Origin: Nitrospirota bacterium
Lineage (GTDB): Bacteria; Nitrospirota; UBA9217
Reading direction: 5' to 3'
Assembly (NCBI GenBank): GCA_035623825.1
Contig: DASPSR010000028.1
Coordinates: forward strand, 38,778-102,777
DNA: 64,000 bases
Shown one piece after another: positions 35,742-63,602 of this stretch. The notes below the pieces were generated by a model, which saw nothing but the letters and a program-made list of their open reading frames with translations, searched no databases and had not been told where the DNA came from. A program made the position numbers and the translations under genes. The first letter of the stretch is position 1; every line of letters begins with the position of its first letter.

Positions 35742-37112
35742 TCATCCGACGATGTCATGCTCCCGTATGCGGAACATGGCACCGAGATCGTCTGCGATCT
35801 TCCGACACGCATCAGTATCCACCTCGGGGAGCGCGACTACGGTGGCTGTGACATCAGGAACATACTTCTTCGCCTCGCGGATGAATTCCTTGACCGCCTC
35901 GTACGTTCCGATGCCGAACTGAGGCTGTGCAAGCTTATGGTAGAGCTCGGCGTTCTGGGCGTTCAGGCTCACGCTCACGGCGTCGACAAGTCCCGCGAGC
36001 TCGGGCAACACGTTCCGCTTGTGGATCAGATTGGCGTGACCGTTCGTGTCGATCCGGACCCTGCCGCCACGTCGTTTCACCTCTGCGGCCACAACCTTGA
36101 CCACATCGAGCCGCAGGAGCGGCTCTCCGTATCCGCAGAACACGATCTCGGCATATCTCTTGGGATCGCCGATCTCGGTGATCACCTGTTCGGCCGTCGG
36201 CTCCTCTCTAAGCCGGAGATTATGCCCTTTCACGAAGTCGGTGTGATAACGCACGCAGAACGTACAGGCGGCCGTGCAGCGATTCGTGATATTGAGGTAC
36301 AGCGAATTCCGGATCGGGTAGCATATCTGGCCGCGCTCCGGGATCATCCCTATCCCGAAGAGCTGCATGGCATTGAAGCTCGTGATCCTGGCAACATCGT
36401 CGAAGGACAGGCCCTTGATCTCTGCGATTGCATCGGCCGTGTGGCGAACGAACGCGGGTTCGTTGCGCTTGCCGCGTACGGCCTGCGGGGCGAGATAGGG
36501 CGCGTCCGTCTCGATCAGCAGGTTCTCGATCGGGATCTGACTCACAACCTTGCGCAGTGAATCTGCTTTCGGGAACGTGACCGGACCGGCAATAGAGATG
36601 GAGAATCCCATTTCGATTGCGCTCTTCGCCATTGCCACGTCGCCCGAGAAACAGTGAAGGACCCCGCCTAGGTCGGTCGGCCATTCCTCGGAGAGGATTC
36701 GGAGCGTGTCGTCATGTGCGTCGCGGTCATGGACAATGACCGGCAGGTCGAGCTCACGAGCCTCGCGCAGCATATCGCGGAATTTTCTCTTCTGATCCGA
36801 CCGGGGCGAATGCTCATAGTGATAATCGAGTCCGACCTCGCCATACGCAACGACCTTCTTGTGCTTCGCCAAATGCCTGAGAATTTCGTATGCGGGATGG
36901 AGGACGTCCTTGACCTCATGGGGATGGATGCCGATCGCGGCATAGATGAAATCGTATTTGTCCGCGAGGAGCACCGCATCGCGGCTTGATTCCACTGTCG
37001 TGCCTATCGTAATGATATGCTCTACGCCCGCCTCGCGGGCACGTTTGATGACGTCGTCGCGGTCTTCGCTGAACTCGCGCATTTCAAGGTGCGCATGGGT
37101 GTCGATGAGCAT
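35742..37112 (-). CDS. tatD: TatD-family nuclease fused to a TatD-linked radical SAM domain
   Basis: IDTHAHL, GIHPH, GEVGLDY, LHCF and ETDAPY, then LYLNITNRCTAACTFC and FCGYGEP. Confidence 0.93.
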   Translation of the reverse strand: MLIDTHAHLEMREFSEDRDDVIKRAREAGVEHIITIGTTVESSRDAVLLADKYDFIYAAIGIHPHEVKDVLHPAYEILRHLAKHKKVVAYGEVGLDYHYEHSPRSDQKRKFRDMLREARELDLPVIVHDRDAHDDTLRILSEEWPTDLGGVLHCFSGDVAMAKSAIEMGFSISIAGPVTFPKADSLRKVVSQIPIENLLIETDAPYLAPQAVRGKRNEPAFVRHTADAIAEIKGLSFDDVARITSFNAMQLFGIGMIPERGQICYPIRNSLYLNITNRCTAACTFCVRYHTDFVKGHNLRLREEPTAEQVITEIGDPKRYAEIVFCGYGEPLLRLDVVKVVAAEVKRRGGRVRIDTNGHANLIHKRNVLPELAGLVDAVSVSLNAQNAELYHKLAQPQFGIGTYEAVKEFIREAKKYVPDVTATVVALPEVDTDACRKIADDLGAMFRIREHDIVG

Positions 37113-46229: not shown

Positions 46230-46991
46230 TTATGCTCTCCTGAGAACCCTGCTCAGAAACATCTTCGTCCTCTCACGCCTTGGATCCGAAAAAATTTCCT
46301 CGGGCGTTCCTGATTCGATGATATCGCCGTCCGCGAATACTACAATCCGGTCCGCAACTTCTTTCGCAAATCCCATCTCGTGAGTTGATATCAAGGTCGT
46401 CATCCCCTCCTGAGACACCAGATCCTTGATCACGGCGAGCACCTCGCCGACCATCTCAGGGTCGAGCGATGCCGTGGGCTCGTCGAAGAGCATGGCCTGT
46501 GGTTTCATGGCAAGGGCCCGCGCGATGGCTGCACGCTGCATTTCTCCGCCTGAGAGCGTCTCCGGCCTGCAATCAGCCTTCTTATCGAGATTGATCCTGC
46601 CGAGAAAAACCAGCGCCTCTTGCTCGGCCTTCTTCCGATCAATGCCGAGAACGTGCACCGGGGCGAGAATGATGTTCTCGAGCACTGTCATGTGCGGAAA
46701 GAGGTTGAAGTGCTGGAAAACCATTCCGACCTTGAGCCTCACCTGCCGGATGGCCTCGGCATCATTTTTCGATGGCCGGGCGCGGTTGATTGAGTGGAGT
46801 GCGGTATCATCCACTTCGATCTCGCCCTTCTCAAAGGTCTCCAGGCCGTTGATGCACCGGAGGAACGTGCTCTTTCCGCTCCCCGATGGCCCGATCAGAA
46901 CGGCCACCTCGCCCCGAGCCACATCAAGACTGATGCCCTTGAAAAGCCCCTGGATGCCGAAAGATTTGTGGAGATTTCTTACCTTAATCAT
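46230..46991 (-). CDS. Polar amino-acid ABC transporter ATP-binding protein (GlnQ-like)
   Basis: [25 protein letters not shown] and [12 protein letters not shown]. Confidence 0.96.
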
Positions 46992-47078
46992 GCCTGATAG
47001 ATCCCTGATTGATTGCCCGCACTTCGATTTTCTTCTTTACAACATATTTATATTTGAACTTTCGGCTTCGTCATTCGG

Positions 47079-48575
47079 TTATCTCTGCCCTTTCAGCCTC
47101 TTCTCAAGCTTCCTCGCCAGAATGGACAGCGGGTAGCTCATGCAGAAGTATAGAATCGCTACGATCATTCCCAGCTCAAAGTAGCGGAGCGTCGTAGCTG
47201 CCAGAATGCCGTAGGTCTTGGTGAGTTCAACCATGGCGATGACCGACACGATGGACGAGTCCTTAAAGAGAGCTATGAAGTCGTTGGTGACTGCCGGAAG
47301 GCTGATCCTGAATGCCTGGGGAAAGATGATTCGGTGAAACGCCATTGTCCTCGGCATACCGAGGGAAAGCGCGGCCTCCATCTGTCCGCGGGGGACGGCC
47401 TCCATTCCTGCACGGTAGACCTCAGCCTCATATGCCGCATAGTTCATGCCGAGACCAATTATGGCCGCGGCAAGCGGGGACAGTACGATGCCGATATTCG
47501 GCAAGCCGTAGTACAGGATGAACAGCTGGATGAGGAGTGGCGTTCCGCGGTAGATCTCGACATACCAGGCGGCGGCGACCCTGAGCGGCGCGGTCCCGTA
47601 GAGCCGGATCATCGTGATGAATATCCCGAGCACTATGGCCAGTGCCATTGACGCAAGAGATAAGTAAACCGTGATGCCTGCGCCTTTCAACAATGAAGGG
47701 AGAAAGGTATGGAGCGGAGCATCGGCGCTCTCAGCACGGAAGGACTGGCCTGCATCGGGTGCGGATGCGAAAGTGAAGAGTTTCGCCTGCGCCCTATCCC
47801 AAAGCCCCCATTTTTCATAGATACGCTTCAGTTCGCCGGTGCGGATCAGGTTGCCGATGACGGAATCGATGACCTGTTTCAACCCCCGATCCCCTTTCCG
47901 GATCGCAATGCCATAGTATCCCTCTCCTTCGGGCGGTCCGGCGTACTTAAGCCTCGGGTCAGGCTTTCCGTAATATACGGTGATGGGGGTATCAAGAAAG
48001 ACTGCATCAAGCCTCCCGAGCGCAAGGTCTTCATAAGGCCATGCTGCGGAATACGACCTGATGTCCACGCCACCGATCTTTTTGAGGATCTCGTGAGCCG
48101 CAGCGCCAGCGAGCGTACCGACCTTCATGCCCGAGAGGTCGTGAATGTCCCTGATGCGCTCCTCGCGCTTTCGCACCACGAGCTGCAGCGTATACACATA
48201 GTACGGCCGGGAGAACATCACCCGTTTTTCCCGCTCGGGGATGATCTCGAGCCCGTTCATGGCCATGTCGTAATCTCCCCGCTCAAGCGCCGGGATCAGG
48301 CTGTCCCAGGCGGTCTGAACCAGCTGTGATTTGACACCAAGTTGTTTTGCGATGGCCTCTACGATGTCCACCTCGAAGCCGATGAGCTTGGATGGGTCCT
48401 TGGGGTCCGGGAACACGTAAGGCGCGCCGCCTTCTGAGTCGGAGCCCCAGAGCAGAACGCCTCGGGTCTTTATGTTCTTAATCGTCGAAGAAGCAGCAGG
48501 GGAACAAGAGCAAAGGGCGATTACGAGGACAACGTCAGTGAGGATTGAAAAAGAAGAGGGAAAACGGCGCATCAT
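47079..48575 (-). CDS. Fused amino-acid ABC substrate-binding protein / permease
   Basis: SBP_bac_3 domain (GFEVDI, WDSLIPAL, FSRPYY) fused to a HisM/GlnP permease (RGTPLLIQL, AEVYRAG, EAA, KDSS). Confidence 0.93.
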   Translation of the reverse strand: MMRRFPSSFSILTDVVLVIALCSCSPAASSTIKNIKTRGVLLWGSDSEGGAPYVFPDPKDPSKLIGFEVDIVEAIAKQLGVKSQLVQTAWDSLIPALERGDYDMAMNGLEIIPEREKRVMFSRPYYVYTLQLVVRKREERIRDIHDLSGMKVGTLAGAAAHEILKKIGGVDIRSYSAAWPYEDLALGRLDAVFLDTPITVYYGKPDPRLKYAGPPEGEGYYGIAIRKGDRGLKQVIDSVIGNLIRTGELKRIYEKWGLWDRAQAKLFTFASAPDAGQSFRAESADAPLHTFLPSLLKGAGITVYLSLASMALAIVLGIFITMIRLYGTAPLRVAAAWYVEIYRGTPLLIQLFILYYGLPNIGIVLSPLAAAIIGLGMNYAAYEAEVYRAGMEAVPRGQMEAALSLGMPRTMAFHRIIFPQAFRISLPAVTNDFIALFKDSSIVSVIAMVELTKTYGILAATTLRYFELGMIVAILYFCMSYPLSILARKLEKRLKGQR

Positions 48576-48746
48576 GGCACAAGAGTAACACCGATGAAAT
48601 TTTGTGTCAATATTCTTCAAGGCCGTGCAAATCTTATCGGGAAGTTTGCAATGCGGGAAGGGAAATTACCAACCGCGGCTTTCATATTTGTCCCCGGCAA
48701 GCTGAAAATTGTGTATAATGTGAGTAAGGAGAAATTTTATTATTAA

Positions 48747-49055
48747 AGGCGTTGTCGGGCCAACACCTATAGGTGTAAATATTTTAACCCGTTTTCAGGG
48801 GGAAAAGGCAACGGACCTGACAGGATGCCGAGACCGGCAAGCGGGCGGCAAGTTGAGCGGTCAGGCTCCCGGTTTTACAGGGTTCTGGCGGGCCGAAAGA
48901 GCCGAATGCCCCGAAGCCTGGGAGAAAAGGGAAAGAAAAACAATACGGCTTCAAAGGGTCCGCCTTGACGGAGCCGGCGAAGCAGCAAATGCTTCCCGTC
49001 CAGTATCCCGGTCTCAACGGAAAGTTAAAAACGGTTCGATGGCAACGCCTTTTTT
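48747..49055 (+). ncRNA. Candidate large structured ncRNA, copy B
   Basis: 5' AGGCGTTGTC-GGGCC pairs with 3' GGTTC-GGCAACGCCT through G-U pairs, followed by a T-run. Upstream TATAAT at 48714-48719. Homologous to copy A. Confidence 0.7.
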
Positions 49056-49150
49056 ATTGTCCAGAGCGGACCGGTCAAATGATGCGAGGTTTCCACAAGC
49101 CGGCCGATTTAACATACCTTCCTGATGAGTATCCAGATCTGATCCTCATG

Positions 49151-50305
49151 CTACCCGATGCTCTCCACCATCTTCCGGAAAGAGCGGCAGTTCTCGACGA
49201 GGTCCTGGCCGTGCCGGAACAGTCCGCCGCCGATCAGGAAAATGAGGTCCCTTCCGTAGGTTGCGAGCATCTCCGGCACGCGGTCGAGGTTCATTCCGCC
49301 GCCGGGAGCAGGAAAAATGGTCTTGATGTCGCCCATGGGGACCTCTGTCCCCGCCACGATATCCGCACACTCCTCGCGGCTGAAGGAAAAGCGGCCGCCG
49401 AAATTCGGGAAGATTGTGGCGTCGGCACCGCTGAGGCGGGCAATCTGTCCAAAGAGGACCCCGTGGGACATGCCTCCCCTTCCCGTGACGAAGCTCCCCT
49501 GGAAAGAGGGGTGCGTCATGATCGGGAGGTCGATCTCCTCGTCATCTGCCAGCTCCCGCATGAGATCGAAGCCGACAAGGCCAGGCGCAACCATCAGCCC
49601 GCCTGCGCCGGCCGCCTTCGCCGTCCGCGCACGTTTCTTCACCTCAAGGCTGGACGCCGTGATATTCGCGACGTAGATGCTCTTGTTGCCGGTCTCCCGG
49701 TTCGCCCGAGCAACTGCCTCGCTGCAGCGCTTCACTCGCTCCTCGAAGGGAGAGCAGCACTGGTCCGTGAGGCCGTGATCGTCTTTGATGATGTCCATGC
49801 CGCCAAGAGCGAATTGATAGGCCAGATCGGCAAGCTCCCGGCAGGTGAGGCCCAGAGGCTTGACCGCCGTGGAGAGGAGCGGCCGATGAGGAATATCGAG
49901 AAGCCTTCGGGTCCCTTGACGGCCGTAGCGGGGTCCCCTGAAGCGGGCAAGAAAGGACAAGGGCAGGTCGAGATGTTCCACGACGATCCCGGGCTTTATG
50001 CTCGTGTTGCCGAACACCACATTCAGGAATTGCGTCAGCTCGCCTGCGGCGATCTCGACTGCGTAGCTGATTACCGCCTTAAGGCTTTTCTGGTCGAACC
50101 GCTCAAACAGCTCAATCCGTCCTAACACATGGTCCCTGATGGCGCCTTCTGCAACGAGGTCAGCCGGAAACTCGATCGTCTGCTCTATGCAGATCTCCTC
50201 TGCCTTGGTGCGAGCCTCCGATTCGCTCCCGAAGATGCGGTAGGTTACGGAAAAGCGCTCGCCCGAGAAGAGCATTCCCGGCGTGCATGTTTTCTGGATG
50301 ATCAT
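49151..50305 (-). CDS. RuBisCO-like protein (form IV, R. rubrum MTRu-1P isomerase / DeepYkr-like)
   Basis: IEQTIEFP, FGN, KPLGL, IKDDHG, HP, FPNFGGRF and PAPGGGM...VPEM..TYG.D.IFLIGG. Start MIIQK overlaps the upstream stop (TAATG). Confidence 0.88.
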   Translation of the reverse strand: MIIQKTCTPGMLFSGERFSVTYRIFGSESEARTKAEEICIEQTIEFPADLVAEGAIRDHVLGRIELFERFDQKSLKAVISYAVEIAAGELTQFLNVVFGNTSIKPGIVVEHLDLPLSFLARFRGPRYGRQGTRRLLDIPHRPLLSTAVKPLGLTCRELADLAYQFALGGMDIIKDDHGLTDQCCSPFEERVKRCSEAVARANRETGNKSIYVANITASSLEVKKRARTAKAAGAGGLMVAPGLVGFDLMRELADDEEIDLPIMTHPSFQGSFVTGRGGMSHGVLFGQIARLSGADATIFPNFGGRFSFSREECADIVAGTEVPMGDIKTIFPAPGGGMNLDRVPEMLATYGRDLIFLIGGGLFRHGQDLVENCRSFRKMVESIG

Positions 50306-52299
50306 TACAGAGCCTCGGCCTTCGCCGTGCTGTGGACCGGCGCTCTGTAGCTCTCCTTCAGATCGCTCTCCGTGATGCCAAAAGTCCTTTCCATCAGCCC
50401 TTCGATCTCGGTGATCAGTGCCATGGCGTCCATGCGATGCTTCTTCATCAGGTATTGCTTGCTGGCGCCATGGGCAAAGGTGTCGCGGAGCCCAATCCTG
50501 GTGAGCCGCTTGTCCATGCCCCGGATCGCCATCTGCTCCGCAACCATGCTCCCGAGCCCGCCCACGACGGTGTGGTTCTCCATGGTGACGACGCCATAGC
50601 GGGAGCGGGCAATCGCATCCAGCACCAATTCGTCGGTGAACGGTTTGAGTGTCGAAATGTGCGTGTGCTGGATTGAGAGACCGCGACGCTGGAGCGCCTG
50701 CACCGCCCGCATGGCCTCTTCGGTCATGATGCCCGACGAGAGGACCGTGACATCGCTTCCTTCCGAGAGCACGCGGGACTTGCCGAGCCGCATCGGTTCC
50801 GCCGGGTTGAACAATCGCGGGATCTCGCCCCGGAGCATTCGAACGTAGACCGGCCCGTTGACCTTTTCGATCGCGTCGAGGACCGATTCCACTTCCGTTG
50901 CGTCGCCGCACTCGACGATGGTCATGTTGGGGAGGGCCCGCATCACCGCCACATCCTCGATGGCCTGGTGCGTCGCTCCGCCGGGCGTGGTGATGCCCGG
51001 CAGGAAACCGATCATCCTGACAGGCATGTTCGAATAGGCAACTGACATGGCGATCTGGTCGAAGGCGCGGCGGTAAATAAAGACAGCGAAGGTGTGAACG
51101 AAGGGGATGAACCCTTCCCGCGCCAGACCCGCGGCGAAGCTCAGCATGTTCTGTTCCGCAATGCCCATGGAGAAAAAGCGGTCAGGATAGGTGTCGCGGA
51201 AGAGGTCGATCTCGGTGGAACTCGTGAGGTCCGCGGAAAGCACAAGCACGTTCGGCTTGCCCGCTGCCCAGCGGACCAGGTTCTTGGCGTGAACTCGGGA
51301 CAATATTTCGGGACCGCCTGAAGGCTCGGCAGGCCGAGATGATCGGTCAAGGGGGATGACTTCACCGCAGAGTTCTTCTAAGGCCATCCGGTAGCGTTCC
51401 TTCTCCTCGGCGCTAGCTAGACGGACATAGTGCATCTTCGGCATCCTGGACTTGAGCACCCTCATGCCCCTGCAGGCGTCCGTGTCAGCGAGCACCACGA
51501 TAGGCCGGCCATCGGGTTTAAGGTTTCCCGCCTTTACCAGCCTGGTGATGTCATGGCCGTTCACCCGGAGCACTCGGCAGCCGAAGGCGGCAAGGCGCTT
51601 GTCTAGAGGCTCGATATTCATGACGTTCTTCATCTTGCCGTCGCACTGGAACCCGTTTACGTCCACATAAACGATGATATTGTCTATCCTGTGGAAGGAC
51701 ATGGCCTGGATCGCCTCCCAGGTCTGGCCGATCTGGAACTCTCCATCGGACATGAACACGAATACCCTGCCGGACTCGCCCTTGCGCATCCGTGCCATGG
51801 CGACTCCGGCCGCCTGGCTGATGCCCTGCCCCAGAGAGCCGGTCATGGTCTCCATGCCGGGCGAATGCTCCGCGCCGATCATCTCGACAACGCTTCCATC
51901 CTTGTTGAACTGGATGAGCCCATCCTCGTCCATGCGACCCGTCTCGATCAGTGTCGCATACAATACGAGGGCGTATTGGGCCGGCGAGAGAAAGAAACGG
52001 TCAAGGCCCTCGTCTTTCGGGCCATTGTACTCCGCGCCCGTGCGGTAGTTCGTATTGTCGGGACCAGGAGCACCGGGAAAGAGCCCGGGAATAAGAGGAG
52101 TCGTGACCTGGCCGATTTTCATGACCTTCACATAGAGGGTCGCCAGGATCTCGGCCGAGGAACAGGCTTGAGAGAGATATCCGCCGTTGTTCCTGATGGT
52201 GTGTTCAAGCACCCTGCGCCGGATGCCCGCGGCAACCCGCTCGACTTCCCGCCGCCACTGCAACGGCAGAGTCCTGTTCTTCTTCAGTTCGCGTTTCAT
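50305..52299 (-). CDS. Fused (full-length) transketolase-like ThDP enzyme with atypical active site
   Basis: TGSLGQG, SDGE..GQTWEA...N, SADL, GIAEQNM, THQA.ED and ENH..GGLG. Confidence 0.88.
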   Translation of the reverse strand: MKRELKKNRTLPLQWRREVERVAAGIRRRVLEHTIRNNGGYLSQACSSAEILATLYVKVMKIGQVTTPLIPGLFPGAPGPDNTNYRTGAEYNGPKDEGLDRFFLSPAQYALVLYATLIETGRMDEDGLIQFNKDGSVVEMIGAEHSPGMETMTGSLGQGISQAAGVAMARMRKGESGRVFVFMSDGEFQIGQTWEAIQAMSFHRIDNIIVYVDVNGFQCDGKMKNVMNIEPLDKRLAAFGCRVLRVNGHDITRLVKAGNLKPDGRPIVVLADTDACRGMRVLKSRMPKMHYVRLASAEEKERYRMALEELCGEVIPLDRSSRPAEPSGGPEILSRVHAKNLVRWAAGKPNVLVLSADLTSSTEIDLFRDTYPDRFFSMGIAEQNMLSFAAGLAREGFIPFVHTFAVFIYRRAFDQIAMSVAYSNMPVRMIGFLPGITTPGGATHQAIEDVAVMRALPNMTIVECGDATEVESVLDAIEKVNGPVYVRMLRGEIPRLFNPAEPMRLGKSRVLSEGSDVTVLSSGIMTEEAMRAVQALQRRGLSIQHTHISTLKPFTDELVLDAIARSRYGVVTMENHTVVGGLGSMVAEQMAIRGMDKRLTRIGLRDTFAHGASKQYLMKKHRMDAMALITEIEGLMERTFGITESDLKESYRAPVHSTAKAEAL

Positions 52300-52392
52300 G
52301 GCACAATCATCCTTCTAAGAGATTTTCGTGCGACAGGGGGCGGGAATGATGCTACGCACGCCCCGGTTTTACGCATGATGAGAATATAATAA

Positions 52393-53743
52393 TTGACATC
52401 CTCACCGGCCTAAAGGCCGATGATTCCAGCATTATCAGCGCATGCTGATACTCTGTAGGTTCCTGCTTCCGACGGCATTACAGCACCGTTCGATCCACAG
52501 GCCAGACGGGTGAGCCCCACCCTTAAGATGTTCTTTGCGGCGTTCACATCGGCATCTTCCGTGTGGCCGCATTTGGTGCAGTAGAACAGGGAACGCGATG
52601 GACGGTTTTCCGGAGAAACGTGAAAGCAATTGGAGCATGTCTGACTGGTATTCTCTGGAGGCACGGCATGCAAAGACCCTCCCCTAAAGCGGAGCTTATA
52701 CTCCAATTGACGGCGAAGCTCGTACCACCCCTGGTCGAGAATCGCCCTGTTCAGGGCGGATTTCCGCTTCACCTGGTTGCCCGGACGGTCTACCGTGCCC
52801 TTCGCGGATTTCGTCATGATCTTGACTGGAAGCTTCTCCACGAACACCAGAGCGTGGTTTTTGCTCATGTCCGAGGAGATATTATGGAGATGGCCATTTC
52901 GTATGTCGGCGATCCGCGCATGAAGACGCTTTATACGGAGTTTCTGCTTCTTCCAGTTGTTGGAACGCTTGACCATTCTGGCTAGACGTCTTTGAAGTTT
53001 CGCAAGGCGTTCCATCATGGTGTTGTATGCAGATACAGGCTCCTTCTTGTCGCCGTTCGATAGGGCGACTATATTCACCTTGCCCATATCGACACCGATG
53101 GCGGAGGATGAAGGAGGAACCGGTTCGGGGACTACGGATTCCGTTTGGACAGAGATGTACCAATAGCCTCCGTGTTCGGAAACCGTGCAGTTCTTTGGTT
53201 TGCCGACGATCTCACGGCTCTTGAAGAACCTGACCCAGCCTATCTTCGGCAGGAATATACGGTTCCCCGATATGACGAAACCTTGAGGGTATCTGAACGA
53301 ACTCGCGCTTTTATGCTTCTTCTTGAACTTTGGGAACCCTTTCGGGTTATCAGGGGAAAACACGGCGTTTATCGCATCGGCAAGGTCTTTCATGCGCTGT
53401 TGCAAAATTTGGGAGTGTGCTTCCTTGAGGAAAGGCAGTTCTTTCTTCCAAGAGGGGAGCAGGGATGTCATGTCCTCATACGATCTGCACCGCTGCCCAT
53501 TGGACAATCGGTCTTTCTGGACCGCCAACGCCTTGTTCCACACGAAGCGAGTGCAGCCGGAGAATTTCCGGAAAGCCGATTCGAGATCAGGATTCGTCTT
53601 AAGCCGGTATCTGTATGCTTTCAGAACCTGCATTCTATTAATGTATAGTGTTTTAACAGAAAATACAACGATTAATTGCTTATAATAATTCGATGCGCCT
53701 TATATCACCGATCTGAAGGACGGTGCTTTACGGCGCAAGTGTG
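52393..53743 (-). mobile_element. IS200/IS605-family element, tnpB-only (IS1341-like), IS608-type ends
   Basis: Left: TTAC|...gtAAAG + hairpin CACCG..TTCA..CGGTG. Right: GAAT + hairpin CATCGGCC-TTTA-GGCCGGTG...TCAA|. Only 110 bp upstream of tnpB, so no room for tnpA. Confidence 0.88.
52410..53633 (-). CDS. tnpB: RNA-guided endonuclease TnpB
   Basis: KAYRYRL..RFVWN HTH, RuvC-I IGVDMG, RuvC-II FVEKL, zinc finger CSNC/CTKC and RuvC-III DADVNAAKNI. Confidence 0.96.
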   Translation of the reverse strand: MQVLKAYRYRLKTNPDLESAFRKFSGCTRFVWNKALAVQKDRLSNGQRCRSYEDMTSLLPSWKKELPFLKEAHSQILQQRMKDLADAINAVFSPDNPKGFPKFKKKHKSASSFRYPQGFVISGNRIFLPKIGWVRFFKSREIVGKPKNCTVSEHGGYWYISVQTESVVPEPVPPSSSAIGVDMGKVNIVALSNGDKKEPVSAYNTMMERLAKLQRRLARMVKRSNNWKKQKLRIKRLHARIADIRNGHLHNISSDMSKNHALVFVEKLPVKIMTKSAKGTVDRPGNQVKRKSALNRAILDQGWYELRRQLEYKLRFRGGSLHAVPPENTSQTCSNCFHVSPENRPSRSLFYCTKCGHTEDADVNAAKNILRVGLTRLACGSNGAVMPSEAGTYRVSACADNAGIIGL

Positions 53744-53900
53744 GTAACGACTGATTGCAAGAGGCATGAACAAGCGTGTCGAGCCAAAATGAACGAAGAG
53801 ATGTATCCGTTCGGTCCTCAAATAATCATCGTCAAGCACCGCATGGTTGGAGTTAGATCAAATTTCGCGCATCTATACCTCCTTCTCTGCGGGATTTAGG

Positions 53901-53941
53901 AAAAATAAAAAAGCCGGGGCCTAAAGCTAAAGCCCCGGCTT
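53901..53941 (-). terminator. Rho-independent terminator
   Basis: Stem AAGCCGGGGC/GCCCCGGCTT followed on the minus strand by a T-run. Confidence 0.8.
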
Positions 53942-53957
53942 GCTGTTTTGTTCAGTG

Positions 53958-54494
53958 CTATGTCCGGATCCGCGCCAGCTTGACCACGACGTCGGATTTC
54001 TTCGCCCCCTTGTCATACAGCGACCAGGTGTGGGTAATGCTGTCCTTGCCGTCAACTGCGATCATGAGCGCGTGCATGTGTGTTTCCGTCAATGTGGCAA
54101 GTCCGGGGTTCTTTTCCGACAGAACGAACATCATCGTGCTGTCGCCCGGATTCCGGAGCTCCATGTGCGGCTGATTCCCGAGGGCGCAGTAGTGGGTCAT
54201 GGCCAACTTGCCACCACTATCATAATAGACCGTAATCATCTCATGGGGTTGTCCAACGGCAAATCGCTCCACGATGGCGTTGCCGGCCGATGTCAGTTCA
54301 TAGGTGACCCTGAGCTTCTCCATTCCCTTGCCCATGTCCGCTGTCCCTTCCCAGACCCCGACCAGATCCTTCATTCTTTCGAAGTCCTTGGAGTGGCTGA
54401 CGGGCGCGCTTGTCTGCTCGCCCGCTAATGCGGTCAAGGGGCCGAACGTCATGCCCAAAAGGAGTATGATGGTTAATGTCGTGCTCTTCTTCAT
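53958..54494 (-). CDS. Exported hypothetical protein
   Basis: SD GAGGAGGT, Sec signal MKKS...ALA, L.G.WEG and THYC..GNQP motifs. Confidence 0.75.
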   Translation of the reverse strand: MKKSTTLTIILLLGMTFGPLTALAGEQTSAPVSHSKDFERMKDLVGVWEGTADMGKGMEKLRVTYELTSAGNAIVERFAVGQPHEMITVYYDSGGKLAMTHYCALGNQPHMELRNPGDSTMMFVLSEKNPGLATLTETHMHALMIAVDGKDSITHTWSLYDKGAKKSDVVVKLARIRT

Positions 54495-54677
54495 ATCGCC
54501 ACCTCCTCTAATTTTCTTCTTTGCCTTCGATTCTAATAAAATATTATCACATGTAGGGCGGGTTTGGCGCCTCTCGCAAGGTTGCTGGCAAGCTCCTATT
54601 GCCAAATGCGGCATTTTCTCATATTTGACGCTATTTTGAGCCTTGGTATAAATTCTGTCCTAGGCTGCAGCGGAATG

Positions 54678-54712
54678 AAAAAAGGCCGGAGGGAATTTCT
54701 CCCCCCGGCCTT
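54678..54712 (-). terminator. groESL terminator
   Basis: Stem AAGGCCGG/CCGGCCTT with a T-run on the minus strand. Confidence 0.8.
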
Positions 54713-54762
54713 CTTGTTCAGTTCCTCGTGAGTTGCTGGTTTCTTCTTCTAAAGTAACCTTT

Positions 54763-56415
<1,653 letters not shown>

Positions 56416-61581: not shown

Positions 61582-62538
61582 TTACCGCGGCTCCTTTTTT
61601 TTCTTGATGACCTCTTTCACAGCCGCTGCGATATCGACCGCCGACAAGCCGTAGTGCCTGAGGAGACCCTCCTGGTCTCCGGAGGTGCCGAAAACGTCCT
61701 TGACGCCGATGCGTACCATGGGTACGGGCGCAGACTCTGACAGTGCCTCTGCCACAGCCCCTCCCAAACCGCCGATGATCGAGTGCTCCTCCGCGGACAC
61801 GATCGCGCCGCACCGCTTTGCCGCGGCGAGGACCGCATGGGTATCAATCGGCTTGATGGTGGACATGTTGATCACGCCCGCGTCAATCCCTTCGGCCTTG
61901 AGCAGGTCGCGCGCCTTGAGCGCCTCAGCGACCATGATCCCCGTGGCGATGACCGCAGCGTCCTTGCCCTCGTTGAACACGTGGGCTTTGCCGATCCTGA
62001 ACTTGTAGTCCGGGCCGAAGATGACCGGCACCTTGTTCCTTCCCGTGCGCACATAGCAGGGCCCCTGGTGCTCGGCCGCGGCCTCAATGGCCTGCAGCGT
62101 CTCCACACCATCCGCAGGCACGATCACCGTCATGTGCGGAATCACCCGCATCACCGCGATGTCTTCTACCGACTGATGAGAGCCGCCATCCTCGCCGACC
62201 GTGACGCCGGCGTGGCTTGCCACGATCTTCACGTTCAGGTTCGGATAGCAGATGGATTGCCTCACCTGCTCCCACGCCCTTCCCGTGGCGAACACTGCGA
62301 AGGTGCTTACGAACGGGAGCTTCCCGCCGATGGCGAGCCCGGCGGCAGTGCCCATCATGTCCTGTTCGGCAATTCCTATGTTGAAAAACCGCGCAGGAAA
62401 CGCCTTGGCGAACTTTGATGTCTTCGTCGATCCCGACAGGTCCGCGTCCAGCACCACCACGTCGTTCCGTTTTCTCCCGAGGCTTACCAGCGCATCACCG
62501 TATGCATCTCTTGTCGCGACTTTCTGTGTTTGTGTCAC
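61582..62538 (-). CDS. Transketolase C-terminal subunit (split type)
   Basis: [17 protein letters not shown] and [10 protein letters not shown]. Confidence 0.95.
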
Positions 62539-62638: not shown

Positions 62639-63481
62639 CTACTTGCAAACAGTCTCTTCAGACAGCTCTTTCATCGCGATATCGAGCTCTTCTTTGGACG
62701 GCGTGGTCCCGTGGAACTCGACCTTCCCCTCGAACACCTTCGAGCCCTTGCCCTTGACCGTGCGGCAGACGATCATGGTAGGCCGTCCCTTTACGGTCTC
62801 GGCCCTGTCGAGCGCCGCCGTGATCGCGGCCATGTCATGGCCGTCGATGTCAAACACTTCCCAGCCGAAAGCGCGCCACTTGTCCGTAATCGGCTCTACG
62901 CCCATGACCTTTTCCACCGGGCCGTCGATCTGGAGTCCGTTGTTGTCCACGAGGGCGCAGACGTTGTCAAGCCTGTAGTGCGCCGCAGTCATCGCCGCCT
63001 CCCAGATTTGTCCCTCCTGGAGTTCGCCGTCGCCGAGCAGGGCGTAGATTCGGCTCGCGCTCTTGTCGAGCTTGTGCGCCAGCGCGAGCCCGTTAGCCAC
63101 GGACAGGCCCTGGCCGAGCGACCCCGTCGATATCTCGACTCCCGGCATGCATTTGCTGTCCGGATGGCCTTGGAGCCGCGAGCCCAGTTTCCGGAGCGTG
63201 CAGAGCTCGGCATGCTCGATGAAGCCGGCATGGGCCAGTGCCGTGTACAGGACCGGAGCCGCGTGTCCCTTGGAGAGGATAAAGTTATCCCGGTCCCGCC
63301 AGTCCGGCCGTTTGGGATCGAACTTCATCTTGTAGAAATAGAGCGCCGTCACGATGTCCGCGGCGGAGAGGCTTCCCCCGGTGTGGCCGGACCCGCACTC
63401 GGTCAGCATCTTCAAGATATCGATGCACACCCTTCTCGCTTTTTCCCTGAGCGTCTTTAACTGCTCTTCCGTCACTGCCAT
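62639..63481 (-). CDS. Transketolase N-terminal subunit (split type)
   Basis: SGHTGGSLS, LSKGHAAP, LQGHP, TGSLGQG, GDGELQEG and FHG. Confidence 0.96.
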   Translation of the reverse strand: MAVTEEQLKTLREKARRVCIDILKMLTECGSGHTGGSLSAADIVTALYFYKMKFDPKRPDWRDRDNFILSKGHAAPVLYTALAHAGFIEHAELCTLRKLGSRLQGHPDSKCMPGVEISTGSLGQGLSVANGLALAHKLDKSASRIYALLGDGELQEGQIWEAAMTAAHYRLDNVCALVDNNGLQIDGPVEKVMGVEPITDKWRAFGWEVFDIDGHDMAAITAALDRAETVKGRPTMIVCRTVKGKGSKVFEGKVEFHGTTPSKEELDIAMKELSEETVCK

Positions 63482-63602
63482 GCACCAATCCTCCTGGATC
63501 ATGTATTGATATGAAACCGATTTGCTCAATGTTTGTTATTCTGTTGAAGAGTTGATTGCCGATTCAACTCCTCCATTTCTAAACTCAAGCGATGCTATCG
63601 CC

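Follow-up and report, generated by a model that had tools for sequence, protein, structure and literature searches.

A RuBisCO-like protein paired with a rebuilt transketolase-like enzyme in Nitrospirota and other bacteria: a probable undescribed way of recycling S-adenosylmethionine-derived sugar

5'-Methylthioadenosine (MTA), like 5'-deoxyadenosine, is formed in every cell that makes use of S-adenosylmethionine (SAM), and both must be removed. The recycling of these by-products in strict anaerobes and in many uncultured lineages is only partly known. Two oxygen-independent routes have been described. The MTA-isoprenoid shunt of Rhodospirillum rubrum and Rhodopseudomonas palustris uses MtnP, MtnA, a RuBisCO-like protein (RLP) of the DeepYkr type, and a cupin 1-methylthioxylulose-5-phosphate methylsulfurylase; the dihydroxyacetone phosphate (DHAP) shunt handles both MTA and 5'-deoxyadenosine with MtnK or MtnP, MtnA, and a class II aldolase (Ald2/DrdA). 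The activity of the DeepYkr RLP with its cupin has been published for both R. rubrum and R. palustris (part of PMC5893883), and the genes of the DHAP shunt are often clustered with a sugar importer (part of PMC6079011). This article concerns a gene pair encoding an RLP, a RuBisCO relative that does not fix carbon, and a transketolase-like (TK-like) enzyme with an altered substrate pocket, found in a 64,000-nucleotide stretch of a Nitrospirota bacterium (assembly GCA_035623825.1, contig DASPSR010000028.1, positions 38,778 to 102,777), the whole of which is referred to as the window. The pair probably marks an undescribed way of recycling SAM-derived sugar.

On balance, the pair would form the downstream half of an oxygen-independent salvage of the 5-methylthioribose and 5-deoxyribose moieties of MTA and 5'-deoxyadenosine, the TK-like enzyme cleaving the product of the RLP. 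Comparative evidence supports this placement in the pathway well, and the chemistry is predicted from sequence. Full-text searches, with subscription journals and supplements outside their scope, found no literature linking an RLP to a transketolase-like partner.

The gene pair and the pocket of the transketolase-like enzyme

The pair, the motifs discussed below, and the canonical transketolase that serves as their reference lie in the window as follows.

50305-52299, minus strand: fused (N plus C) TK-like thiamine diphosphate (ThDP) enzyme, 664 aa, ATG start (Pfam, alignment)
49151-50305, minus strand: RLP, form IV, DeepYkr-like, 384 aa from the ATG of TAATG
50303-50307, minus strand: TAATG stop/start overlap leading from the TK-like gene into the RLP gene (sequence)
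52168-52185: GGYLSQ motif of the TK-like enzyme
51973-51990: LSPAQY motif of the TK-like enzyme
51868-51885: EMIGAE motif of the TK-like enzyme
51151-51165: GIAEQ motif of the TK-like enzyme, with the catalytic Glu
62639-63529: N subunit of a split canonical transketolase
61582-62538: C subunit of the split canonical transketolase, GIAEQ present
63161-63391: SGHTGG, LSKGHA, and LQGHP motifs of the split canonical transketolase

The stop codon TAA of the TK-like gene occupies 50307-50305 and the RLP start codon ATG occupies 50305-50303, so that one A is common to both; the overlap reported in a preliminary description of this DNA can thus be read directly in the window sequence. An RBS-like GAGG precedes the RLP start codon by 7 nt, and the sequence across the junction is GAGGCTCTGTAATGATC. 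Judged from this arrangement, the overlap joins the two genes by translational coupling. Pfam assigns Transketolase_N, Transket_pyr, and Transketolase_C domains (PF00456, PF02779, PF02780) to the TK-like protein and a RuBisCO_large domain (PF00016; 106.2 bits, cut-off 30.1, residues 131-381) to the RLP, which is the sole PF00016 gene of its genome and has neither a small subunit nor a carboxylase context.

A six-frame search of the window located the motifs, and alignment with the split transketolase confirmed that GGYLSQ, LSPAQY, and EMIGAE stand in place of SGHTGG, LSKGHA, and LQGHP, as had first been noticed. Pocket residues were read from a HMMER alignment of the TK-like enzyme to human transketolase in chain numbering. 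Three histidines are replaced (H37 by Y41, H77 by Q108, and H110 by I141), together with two residues that the preliminary description had missed (H416 by L433 and D424 by G440). The same alignment agrees with that description on the retention of the ThDP motif (SDG...N), the catalytic Glu (E366, here E382), and the THQ histidine (H444); also kept are R318 (R335), S345 (S361), and R474 (R490). A fourth active-site histidine is probably retained as well, since MAFFT aligns H290 with the EFHG histidine of the split enzyme, a region left unaligned by HMMER. Structural work on transketolase places H110 and H77 (H100 and H66 in E. coli) in contact with the C1-hydroxyl of the donor, H416 with the phosphate, and D424 with the C2-hydroxyl of the acceptor. 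An isoleucine at the C1-hydroxyl contact beside the kept phosphate-binding Arg/Ser/Arg would fit a pentulose 5-phosphate lacking a C1 hydroxyl.

Scanning one genome per species confirmed at least 477 relatives of the TK-like enzyme. In 12 relatives at 74-85% identity the five pocket replacements do not vary, and they vary little in 80 loci retrieved by the motifs FFLSPAQY and [VS]VEMIGAE, a retrieval that partly builds in the conservation of these two motifs; the conservation of GGY[LM]SQ and GFLPG..TPGG.THQ is independent of it. To judge by this conservation, the substitutions are not drift. Position 108 varies: it is Gln in Nitrospirota and Clostridia, and His in most Alphaproteobacteria and Chloroflexi (xAPAHY). 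The earlier claim that three histidines have been lost therefore holds for this protein (Y41, Q108, I141) but not family-wide, because many members carry a histidine at the H77 position. Nitrospirota and a few Chloroflexota have the enzyme in fused form, and elsewhere it is split into N and C subunits (TK-N, TK-C); among 101 cluster open reading frames (ORFs), 27 are at least 508 aa long and 74 are of 212-374 aa.

Judged by substrate residues and curated cut-offs, the protein is neither an ordinary transketolase nor 1-deoxyxylulose-5-phosphate synthase (DXS), while its cofactor machinery is kept. It misses all NCBIfam transketolase cut-offs, coming closest with NF004559 (375.3 bits versus 488). 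An ordinary transketolase (EC 2.2.1.1) would share its three-domain architecture, ThDP motif, and catalytic Glu, but the substrate residues and the NCBIfam cut-offs fail. Identity as DXS was rejected on TIGR00204 (194.5 bits, cut-off 465.95), and membership of the phosphoketolase family on the lack of an XFP domain among its Pfam matches at E<=0.001. Elsewhere in the genome, contig C27 carries a fused canonical transketolase with all His motifs, and contig C51 a DXS-like gene. Because split and fused canonical transketolases are both present, the TK-like enzyme is not needed for the pentose-phosphate pathway.

The RLP and the conservation of the pairing

The closest solved relative of the RLP is 3qfw_A, which we take to be R. 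palustris RLP1; it matches at 246 bits over residues 16-380 and has IKDDHGL in common with the window protein, and MtnW chains score about 160 bits. MtnW-type models are its best matches in NCBIfam but stay far below cut-off: an MtnW/YkrW enolase was rejected on NF007095 (226.9 bits versus 409), on TIGR03332 (176.5 versus 513.6), and on the motif KDDH rather than KDDE. The apionate-pathway alternative raised in the preliminary description did not survive comparison with OiaX (NF042437, 82 bits against a cut-off of 700).

Among 301 alphaproteobacterial genomes sampled for relatives of the RLP, 15 encode full-length ones at 33-46% identity. Two of these 15 loci have adjacent TK-N and TK-C genes, and the other 13 have a Cupin_2 protein of 147-168 aa directly downstream. 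The R. palustris rlp1-cupin arrangement, RLP followed by cupin, is the same as in these 13 loci (part of PMC5893883). A quick tree of 69 RLPs, in which 31 of 66 inner branches are open and from which three matches shorter than 300 aa were omitted, unites the 13 cupin-partnered proteins in one clade (support 100) and splits the TK-partnered and cupin-partnered RLPs jointly from another RLP type (stem length 3.22, support 100). The 53 TK-partnered and 13 cupin-partnered RLPs agree at 61 columns conserved at 90% or more in both groups, including KPxG, GGxDxIKDDHGLxxQ, HP, and GADxxxFPNxGGRF; consistent differences occupy 12 columns, among them a short loop present only in the TK-partnered group. 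From these conserved residues, rather than from clade membership, it is a reasonable inference that both groups catalyse the same type of reaction, and the window RLP is predicted to be a 5-substituted ribulose-1-phosphate 1,3-isomerase.

Gene contexts were taken from tblastn tables and record presence or absence only. An RLP gene adjoins the TK-like gene in 54 of the 80 loci, and the pair occurs in Nitrospirota, Bacillota, Chloroflexota, Elusimicrobiota, Ignavibacteriota, Acidobacteriota, Myxococcota, and Pseudomonadota. The 26 loci without an adjacent RLP comprise 13 with a different gene context, eight with less than 2.2 kb of downstream DNA, one with a short upstream flank, and four from Nitrospirota with no RLP within reach. 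Among 41 relatives of the window's genome, the TK-like enzyme is present in 16, all of which also encode a PF00016 protein; such proteins occur in six of the 25 TK-negative relatives, some of them true RuBisCOs by score. The pairing postulated at the outset is thus conserved, and its expected anti-correlation with the cupin is complete in the 94 loci compared: the cupin is found in all 13 alphaproteobacterial RLP loci without a TK-like gene and in none of the 81 TK loci (the 80 plus L098). A tblastn search of the window's own genome at E<=1e-3, a weak test for so small a protein, found no RLP-linked cupin.

Two accessory genes recur beside the pair in Nitrospirota. In five loci (L008, L018, L019, L029, L032) the TK-like gene and the RLP have a small CMD/AhpD-family gene between them or right after them, and in five others (L007, L013, L020, L024, L027) a PEMT/ICMT-like membrane methyltransferase lies 3' of the RLP. 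The window pair is adjoined by neither; a PEMT homologue is encoded on contig C2.

Genes of the upstream salvage steps accompany the pair in many of its relatives. By tblastn, MtnK-like proteins are found in 17 loci and MtnA-like proteins in 17, giving 20 loci with either, and an RLP is present in all 20; in most of them a ribose-type ABC importer, RbsD, and a SorC regulator are encoded too. The clearest arrangement is that of Clostridium ljungdahlii (L028), in which eight same-strand genes separated by gaps of at most 25 nt encode, in order, a binding protein, an ABC ATPase, a permease, MtnK (432.6 bits, cut-off 275), MtnA (427 bits, cut-off 279), TK-N, TK-C, and the RLP. A SAM-I riboswitch lies 272 nt upstream of this operon (88.8 bits, gathering threshold 44.4). 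As far as its sequence can tell, the operon links the module with the methionine regulon of a strict anaerobe, an organism that cannot use the dioxygenase route.

Nitrospirota have no importer or MtnK near the pair, and MTAP (MtnP) and MtnA are encoded elsewhere in the genome, which suggests that here the pair serves to recycle MTA and 5'-deoxyadenosine from the cell itself, not from uptake. MTAP is found in 37 and MtnA in 36 of the 41 relatives of the window's genome, including all three same-genus genomes, and both occur in five of five further Nitrospirota genomes with a TK-like gene.

In alphaproteobacterial MtnK-MtnA-TK-RLP clusters, a bifunctional class II aldolase/short-chain dehydrogenase protein (NF006192, 1034 bits) is also encoded (L053, L055, L061, L069, L076, L078, L082, L084). 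These clusters may combine an aldolase branch with an RLP-TK branch.

The proposed pathway and its alternatives

In the first step of the proposed pathway, MtnP, or MtnK with an importer, would act ahead of MtnA to give 5-methylthio- or 5-deoxy-ribulose 1-phosphate. The chemistry of these enzymes is known; their genes are seen in the contexts of relatives, not in the window. The RLP would then catalyse a 1,3-isomerisation that shifts the carbonyl, forming 1-methylthio-xylulose 5-phosphate, or 1-deoxy-xylulose 5-phosphate (DXP) from the deoxy sugar, a step proposed because the active-site residues are common to the cupin-partnered RLPs of published activity. In the third step, proposed because of the pocket and the gene contexts, the ThDP enzyme would replace the cupin methylsulfurylase: ThDP would add to C2, the C2-C3 bond would be cleaved, and glyceraldehyde 3-phosphate (GAP) would be released. 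The kept Arg/Ser/Arg phosphate site would suit a pentulose 5-phosphate, and an Ile for the His that bonds the C1-hydroxyl, with Tyr and Gln or His at the other two positions, would suit a C1 bearing S-methyl or hydrogen.

The resulting C2 enamine could meet three fates: transfer to an acceptor, protonation to an aldehyde, or, for the thioether only, beta-elimination. Protonation might, speculatively, turn the C2 unit of the methylthio substrate into 2-(methylthio)acetaldehyde and that of the deoxy substrate into acetaldehyde. Loss of methanethiol from the ThDP-bound enamine by beta-elimination, equally speculative, would leave acetyl-ThDP, as in phosphoketolase; that enzyme and the turnover of halopyruvates by ThDP enzymes are precedents. 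Such an elimination would explain the return of sulfur to methionine, with no need of a cupin or glutathione, in a SAM-regulated operon. A tentative and rather doubtful assignment is that the TK-like enzyme is a "1-methylthio-xylulose-5-phosphate ketolase" forming GAP, methanethiol, and acetyl-ThDP (which would become acetyl-phosphate, acetate, or acetyl-CoA), and acting with 5-deoxyribose as a DXP lyase that releases acetaldehyde. If true, this ketolase would recover the sulfur as methanethiol for methionine resynthesis, together with all five methylthioribose carbons, using no oxygen or glutathione.

The only clue that discriminates among the three fates is a hint from microcompartments, and it points to an aldehyde. 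In four Chloroflexota loci (L036-L038, L040), TK-N, TK-C, and the RLP stand at the distal end of an operon that also has EutN shell genes (microcompartment region about 5900-13100 in L037, L038, and L040). A BMC-H shell gene is present in two of the four (L037, L038), and an acylating-type aldehyde dehydrogenase in three (L037, L038, L040). Metabolosomes enclose an aldehyde-forming signature enzyme together with such a dehydrogenase (part of PMC11585597); that source mentions neither an RLP nor this TK-like enzyme. Because TK-RLP genes stand in an operon with shell genes and an aldehyde dehydrogenase, the pattern of a metabolosome, an aldehyde product is favoured by analogy, at least in these loci, and the Chloroflexota microcompartment may be a new metabolosome type. 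The operon also encodes two small proteins without a Pfam match; in L037 and L040, MtnK and an importer lie upstream of it in divergent orientation.

Several observations weigh against placing the pair in SAM by-product salvage. In addition to the partly built-in motif conservation noted above, the window RLP is only 33-40% identical to cupin-type RLPs and stands outside their clade in the tree, and the 53 TK-partnered RLPs fall into several clades on an unresolved base rather than forming one. The DeepYkr type first assigned to the RLP is accordingly upheld by the 3qfw match and the 61 conserved columns but not by membership of the cupin-partnered clade. A SAM riboswitch was found in only one of the eight loci searched. 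The TK-like enzyme occurs without an RLP in 13 loci that instead carry a xylulokinase-like kinase, a polyol dehydrogenase, and a BisC-type reductase. Class II aldolase is not complementary to the TK-like enzyme: 11 of the 16 TK-positive relatives encode it, as do 14 of the 25 TK-negative ones. The TnpB element upstream of the TK-like gene may affect expression. Finally, MtnA, MTAP (MtnP), an MtnK-like protein, and a class II aldolase were not found in the window's own genome, which is 89.65% complete, and this assembly has no counterpart to the block of some 38 kb in which the same-genus genome G007 encodes MtnA and MTAP.

That block (G007:C158:52000-90000) contains some 35 ORFs with only weak paralogous matches in the window's assembly, and a synteny comparison found no counterpart in this genome to the MtnA and MTAP regions of two more distant Nitrospirota either. 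The absence may reflect a binning gap or may be real; one gap could hide both genes because MtnA and MTAP lie about 10 kb apart on one contig in all three same-genus genomes. The co-occurrence of the pair with mtnA and mtnP anticipated in the preliminary description is therefore seen in the 20 RLP loci with MtnK or MtnA and in most relatives, but not in the genome from which the window comes.

Breakdown of another sugar unrelated to SAM by-products (an apiose-type branched sugar, a pentose, or a pentitol) is unlikely. In 2018, Carter et al. reportedly placed RLPs and split transketolases in D-apiose pathways, and the ribose-type ABC importers, RbsD, and SorC regulators of many loci would agree with sugar catabolism, as would the 13 loci in which the TK-like enzyme accompanies a polyol dehydrogenase and a kinase. 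These belong to a set of 14 loci, mostly from Paracoccaceae and Roseobacteraceae (L046, L049, L051, L057-L059, L062, L064, L066, L067, L072, L073, L075, L079), which have the same TK-like pocket with another gene set and an RLP in one only (L079). The set encodes a xylulokinase-like FGGY kinase (272-280 bits to XylB), a Zn polyol dehydrogenase, a sulfonate-type ABC transporter, often a sulfatase, an L-ribulose-5-phosphate 4-epimerase-like protein (245.9 bits versus a cut-off of 251), and a BisC-family S/N-oxide reductase (855 bits). The C5 kinase and the pentulose-5-phosphate epimerase would deliver a pentulose 5-phosphate, and the S-oxide reductase hints at a thioether substrate. The RLP-free loci look like an undescribed pathway of marine Rhodobacterales, perhaps for a sulfoxide- or thioether-bearing pentitol. 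Against another sugar as the substrate of the pair itself stand the low OiaX score, the grouping of its RLP with cupin-partnered RLPs against another RLP type, and the C. ljungdahlii operon, in which MtnK and MtnA exceed their equivalog cut-offs behind a SAM riboswitch.

Another order of steps within SAM by-product salvage is very unlikely. In that case the substrate of the TK-like enzyme would be the ketose 1-phosphate formed by MtnA or an aldehyde from an aldolase, and the RLP would act on the TK product or in parallel. The kinase-isomerase-TK-RLP gene order of C. ljungdahlii would suit this scheme, as would the class II aldolase or aldolase-dehydrogenase fusion of some loci; a promiscuous transketolase step on 5-deoxyribulose 1-phosphate has moreover been suggested for M. 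jannaschii (cited in part of PMC8102628). However, the phosphate-binding Arg/Ser/Arg of transketolase is at its usual positions, which suits a pentulose 5-phosphate, and the C. ljungdahlii operon has no aldolase. The RLP-free context, with its C5 kinase and 4-epimerase-like protein, would also end in a pentulose 5-phosphate, and for this reason the TK-like step is placed after the RLP step.

It is also quite improbable that the pair has been left orphaned or is a decaying remnant here, in an organism that truly lacks the genes for supplying substrate and has an insertion sequence (IS) element upstream of the pair. The failure to find MtnA, MTAP, and MtnK would agree with this, as would the TnpB gene that ends 110 nt upstream of the TK-like start.

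52410-53633, minus strand: TnpB gene, IS200/IS605-type (NF040570, 325 bits)

In one relative, G012 (C15:1032373-1035467), the TK-like gene has eight in-frame stops and the adjacent RLP gene also contains stops; this counts toward decay, although the double damage could be either joint decay or a poor stretch of assembly. Both window ORFs, by contrast, are intact and have all family-invariant residues, and in a genome of this completeness a single gap would be enough to remove both MtnA and MTAP.

Least credible of all is a third pentose-phosphate transketolase isozyme accidentally adjacent to an RLP: Pfam and NCBIfam do place the protein in the transketolase family and source databases name it "transketolase", but five substrate-contact residues are replaced and fixed across phyla (Q/H at 108 excepted), no NCBIfam transketolase cut-off is reached, co-occurrence with the RLP is 16 of 16, and the genome already has the split and fused canonical enzymes and the DXS-like gene.

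The surroundings of the pair were surveyed for further signals. Apart from a sub-threshold HgcC-family RNA match at 52380-52518 (minus strand; 30.8 bits, E 6e-4), which spans the TnpB 3' end together with the spacer, the expected place of a TnpB guide (omega) RNA, no known RNA or riboswitch was found beside the pair in the window. The promoter of the pair may come from the TnpB element or be disturbed by it. A promoter and terminator scan of 48400-54800 gave counts no higher than in shuffled sequence, and for this reason no operon boundary is claimed. Downstream of the RLP (46230-48620, minus strand) lies a cystine-type polar amino-acid ABC transporter, consisting of a binding-protein/permease fusion and a TcyN-like ATPase. 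A similar amino-acid transporter near the C. ljungdahlii RLP operon (L028, 16393-20705) has its own SAM riboswitch in front, and a third SAM riboswitch there precedes an amino-acid permease; a link between the transporter beside the RLP and sulfur amino-acid uptake is possible. Farther away, a 456-aa ORF (35742-37112, minus strand) is an unusual fusion, with a TatD-type DNase domain at residues 3-253 and a radical SAM domain at residues 273-442, and such a radical SAM enzyme would itself produce 5'-deoxyadenosine.

Comparison with known systems

If the salvage pathway proposed here is correct, the two known oxygen-independent routes would be joined by a thiamine-dependent one and the transketolase superfamily would gain a new reaction, which would be of interest to the fields of SAM metabolism and ThDP enzymes. 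The pathway would also put right thousands of annotations as "transketolase" or "RuBisCO large subunit", labels that can mislead the inference of carbon fixation and pentose-phosphate metabolism in metagenomes. The SAM-riboswitch operon of C. ljungdahlii offers a directly testable system in a cultivable organism that is not a pathogen.

The TK-like enzyme resembles canonical transketolase in its three-domain fold family, ThDP motif, catalytic Glu, and Arg/Ser/Arg, with about 33-36% identity to the split enzyme of the window. It differs in an insertion of about 30 residues after the first motif and in the replacement of H37, H77, H110, H416, and D424. Phosphoketolase and DXS are ThDP enzymes that work on the bond between GAP and the C2 unit of the xylulose-5-phosphate skeleton; in phosphoketolase the beta substituent of the enamine is eliminated, leaving acetyl-ThDP, and DXS handles hydroxyethyl-ThDP and GAP. 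Both are analogous to the TK-like enzyme in the proposed chemistry only, as it belongs to neither family.

Sugar-phosphate-utilising (SPU) microcompartments, whose signature enzyme is DERA, are comparable to the four Chloroflexota TK-RLP loci with BMC-H or EutN shell genes, three of which have an aldehyde dehydrogenase. No DERA or RpiB was seen in these four loci; the products of DERA are nevertheless those predicted for the TK-like enzyme from the deoxy substrate, GAP and acetaldehyde.

The DHAP shunt shares its first two steps with the proposed pathway and, as that pathway would, converts the C5 skeleton into a triose phosphate and a C2 fragment at the aldehyde level. In the TK-RLP module, however, cleavage would follow an extra isomerisation, would depend on ThDP, and is predicted to release GAP rather than DHAP; the shunt's aldolase has no counterpart in the C. 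ljungdahlii TK-RLP operon.

The MTA-isoprenoid shunt is likewise oxygen-independent, with the same upstream MtnP or MtnK and MtnA (in relatives of the window's genome) and the same kind of RLP, of about 380 aa with a KDDHGL-type site. In contrast to that shunt, the module has a ThDP enzyme in place of the cupin, the two partners never occurring together in the loci compared, and its TK-partnered RLPs lie outside the cupin-partnered clade. The shunt yields DXP and methylthio-glutathione, whereas the module is predicted to yield GAP and a C2 unit. If the ketolase assignment is true, the pair would represent a third, widespread anaerobic branch of methionine and 5'-deoxyadenosine salvage beside the isoprenoid and DHAP shunts.

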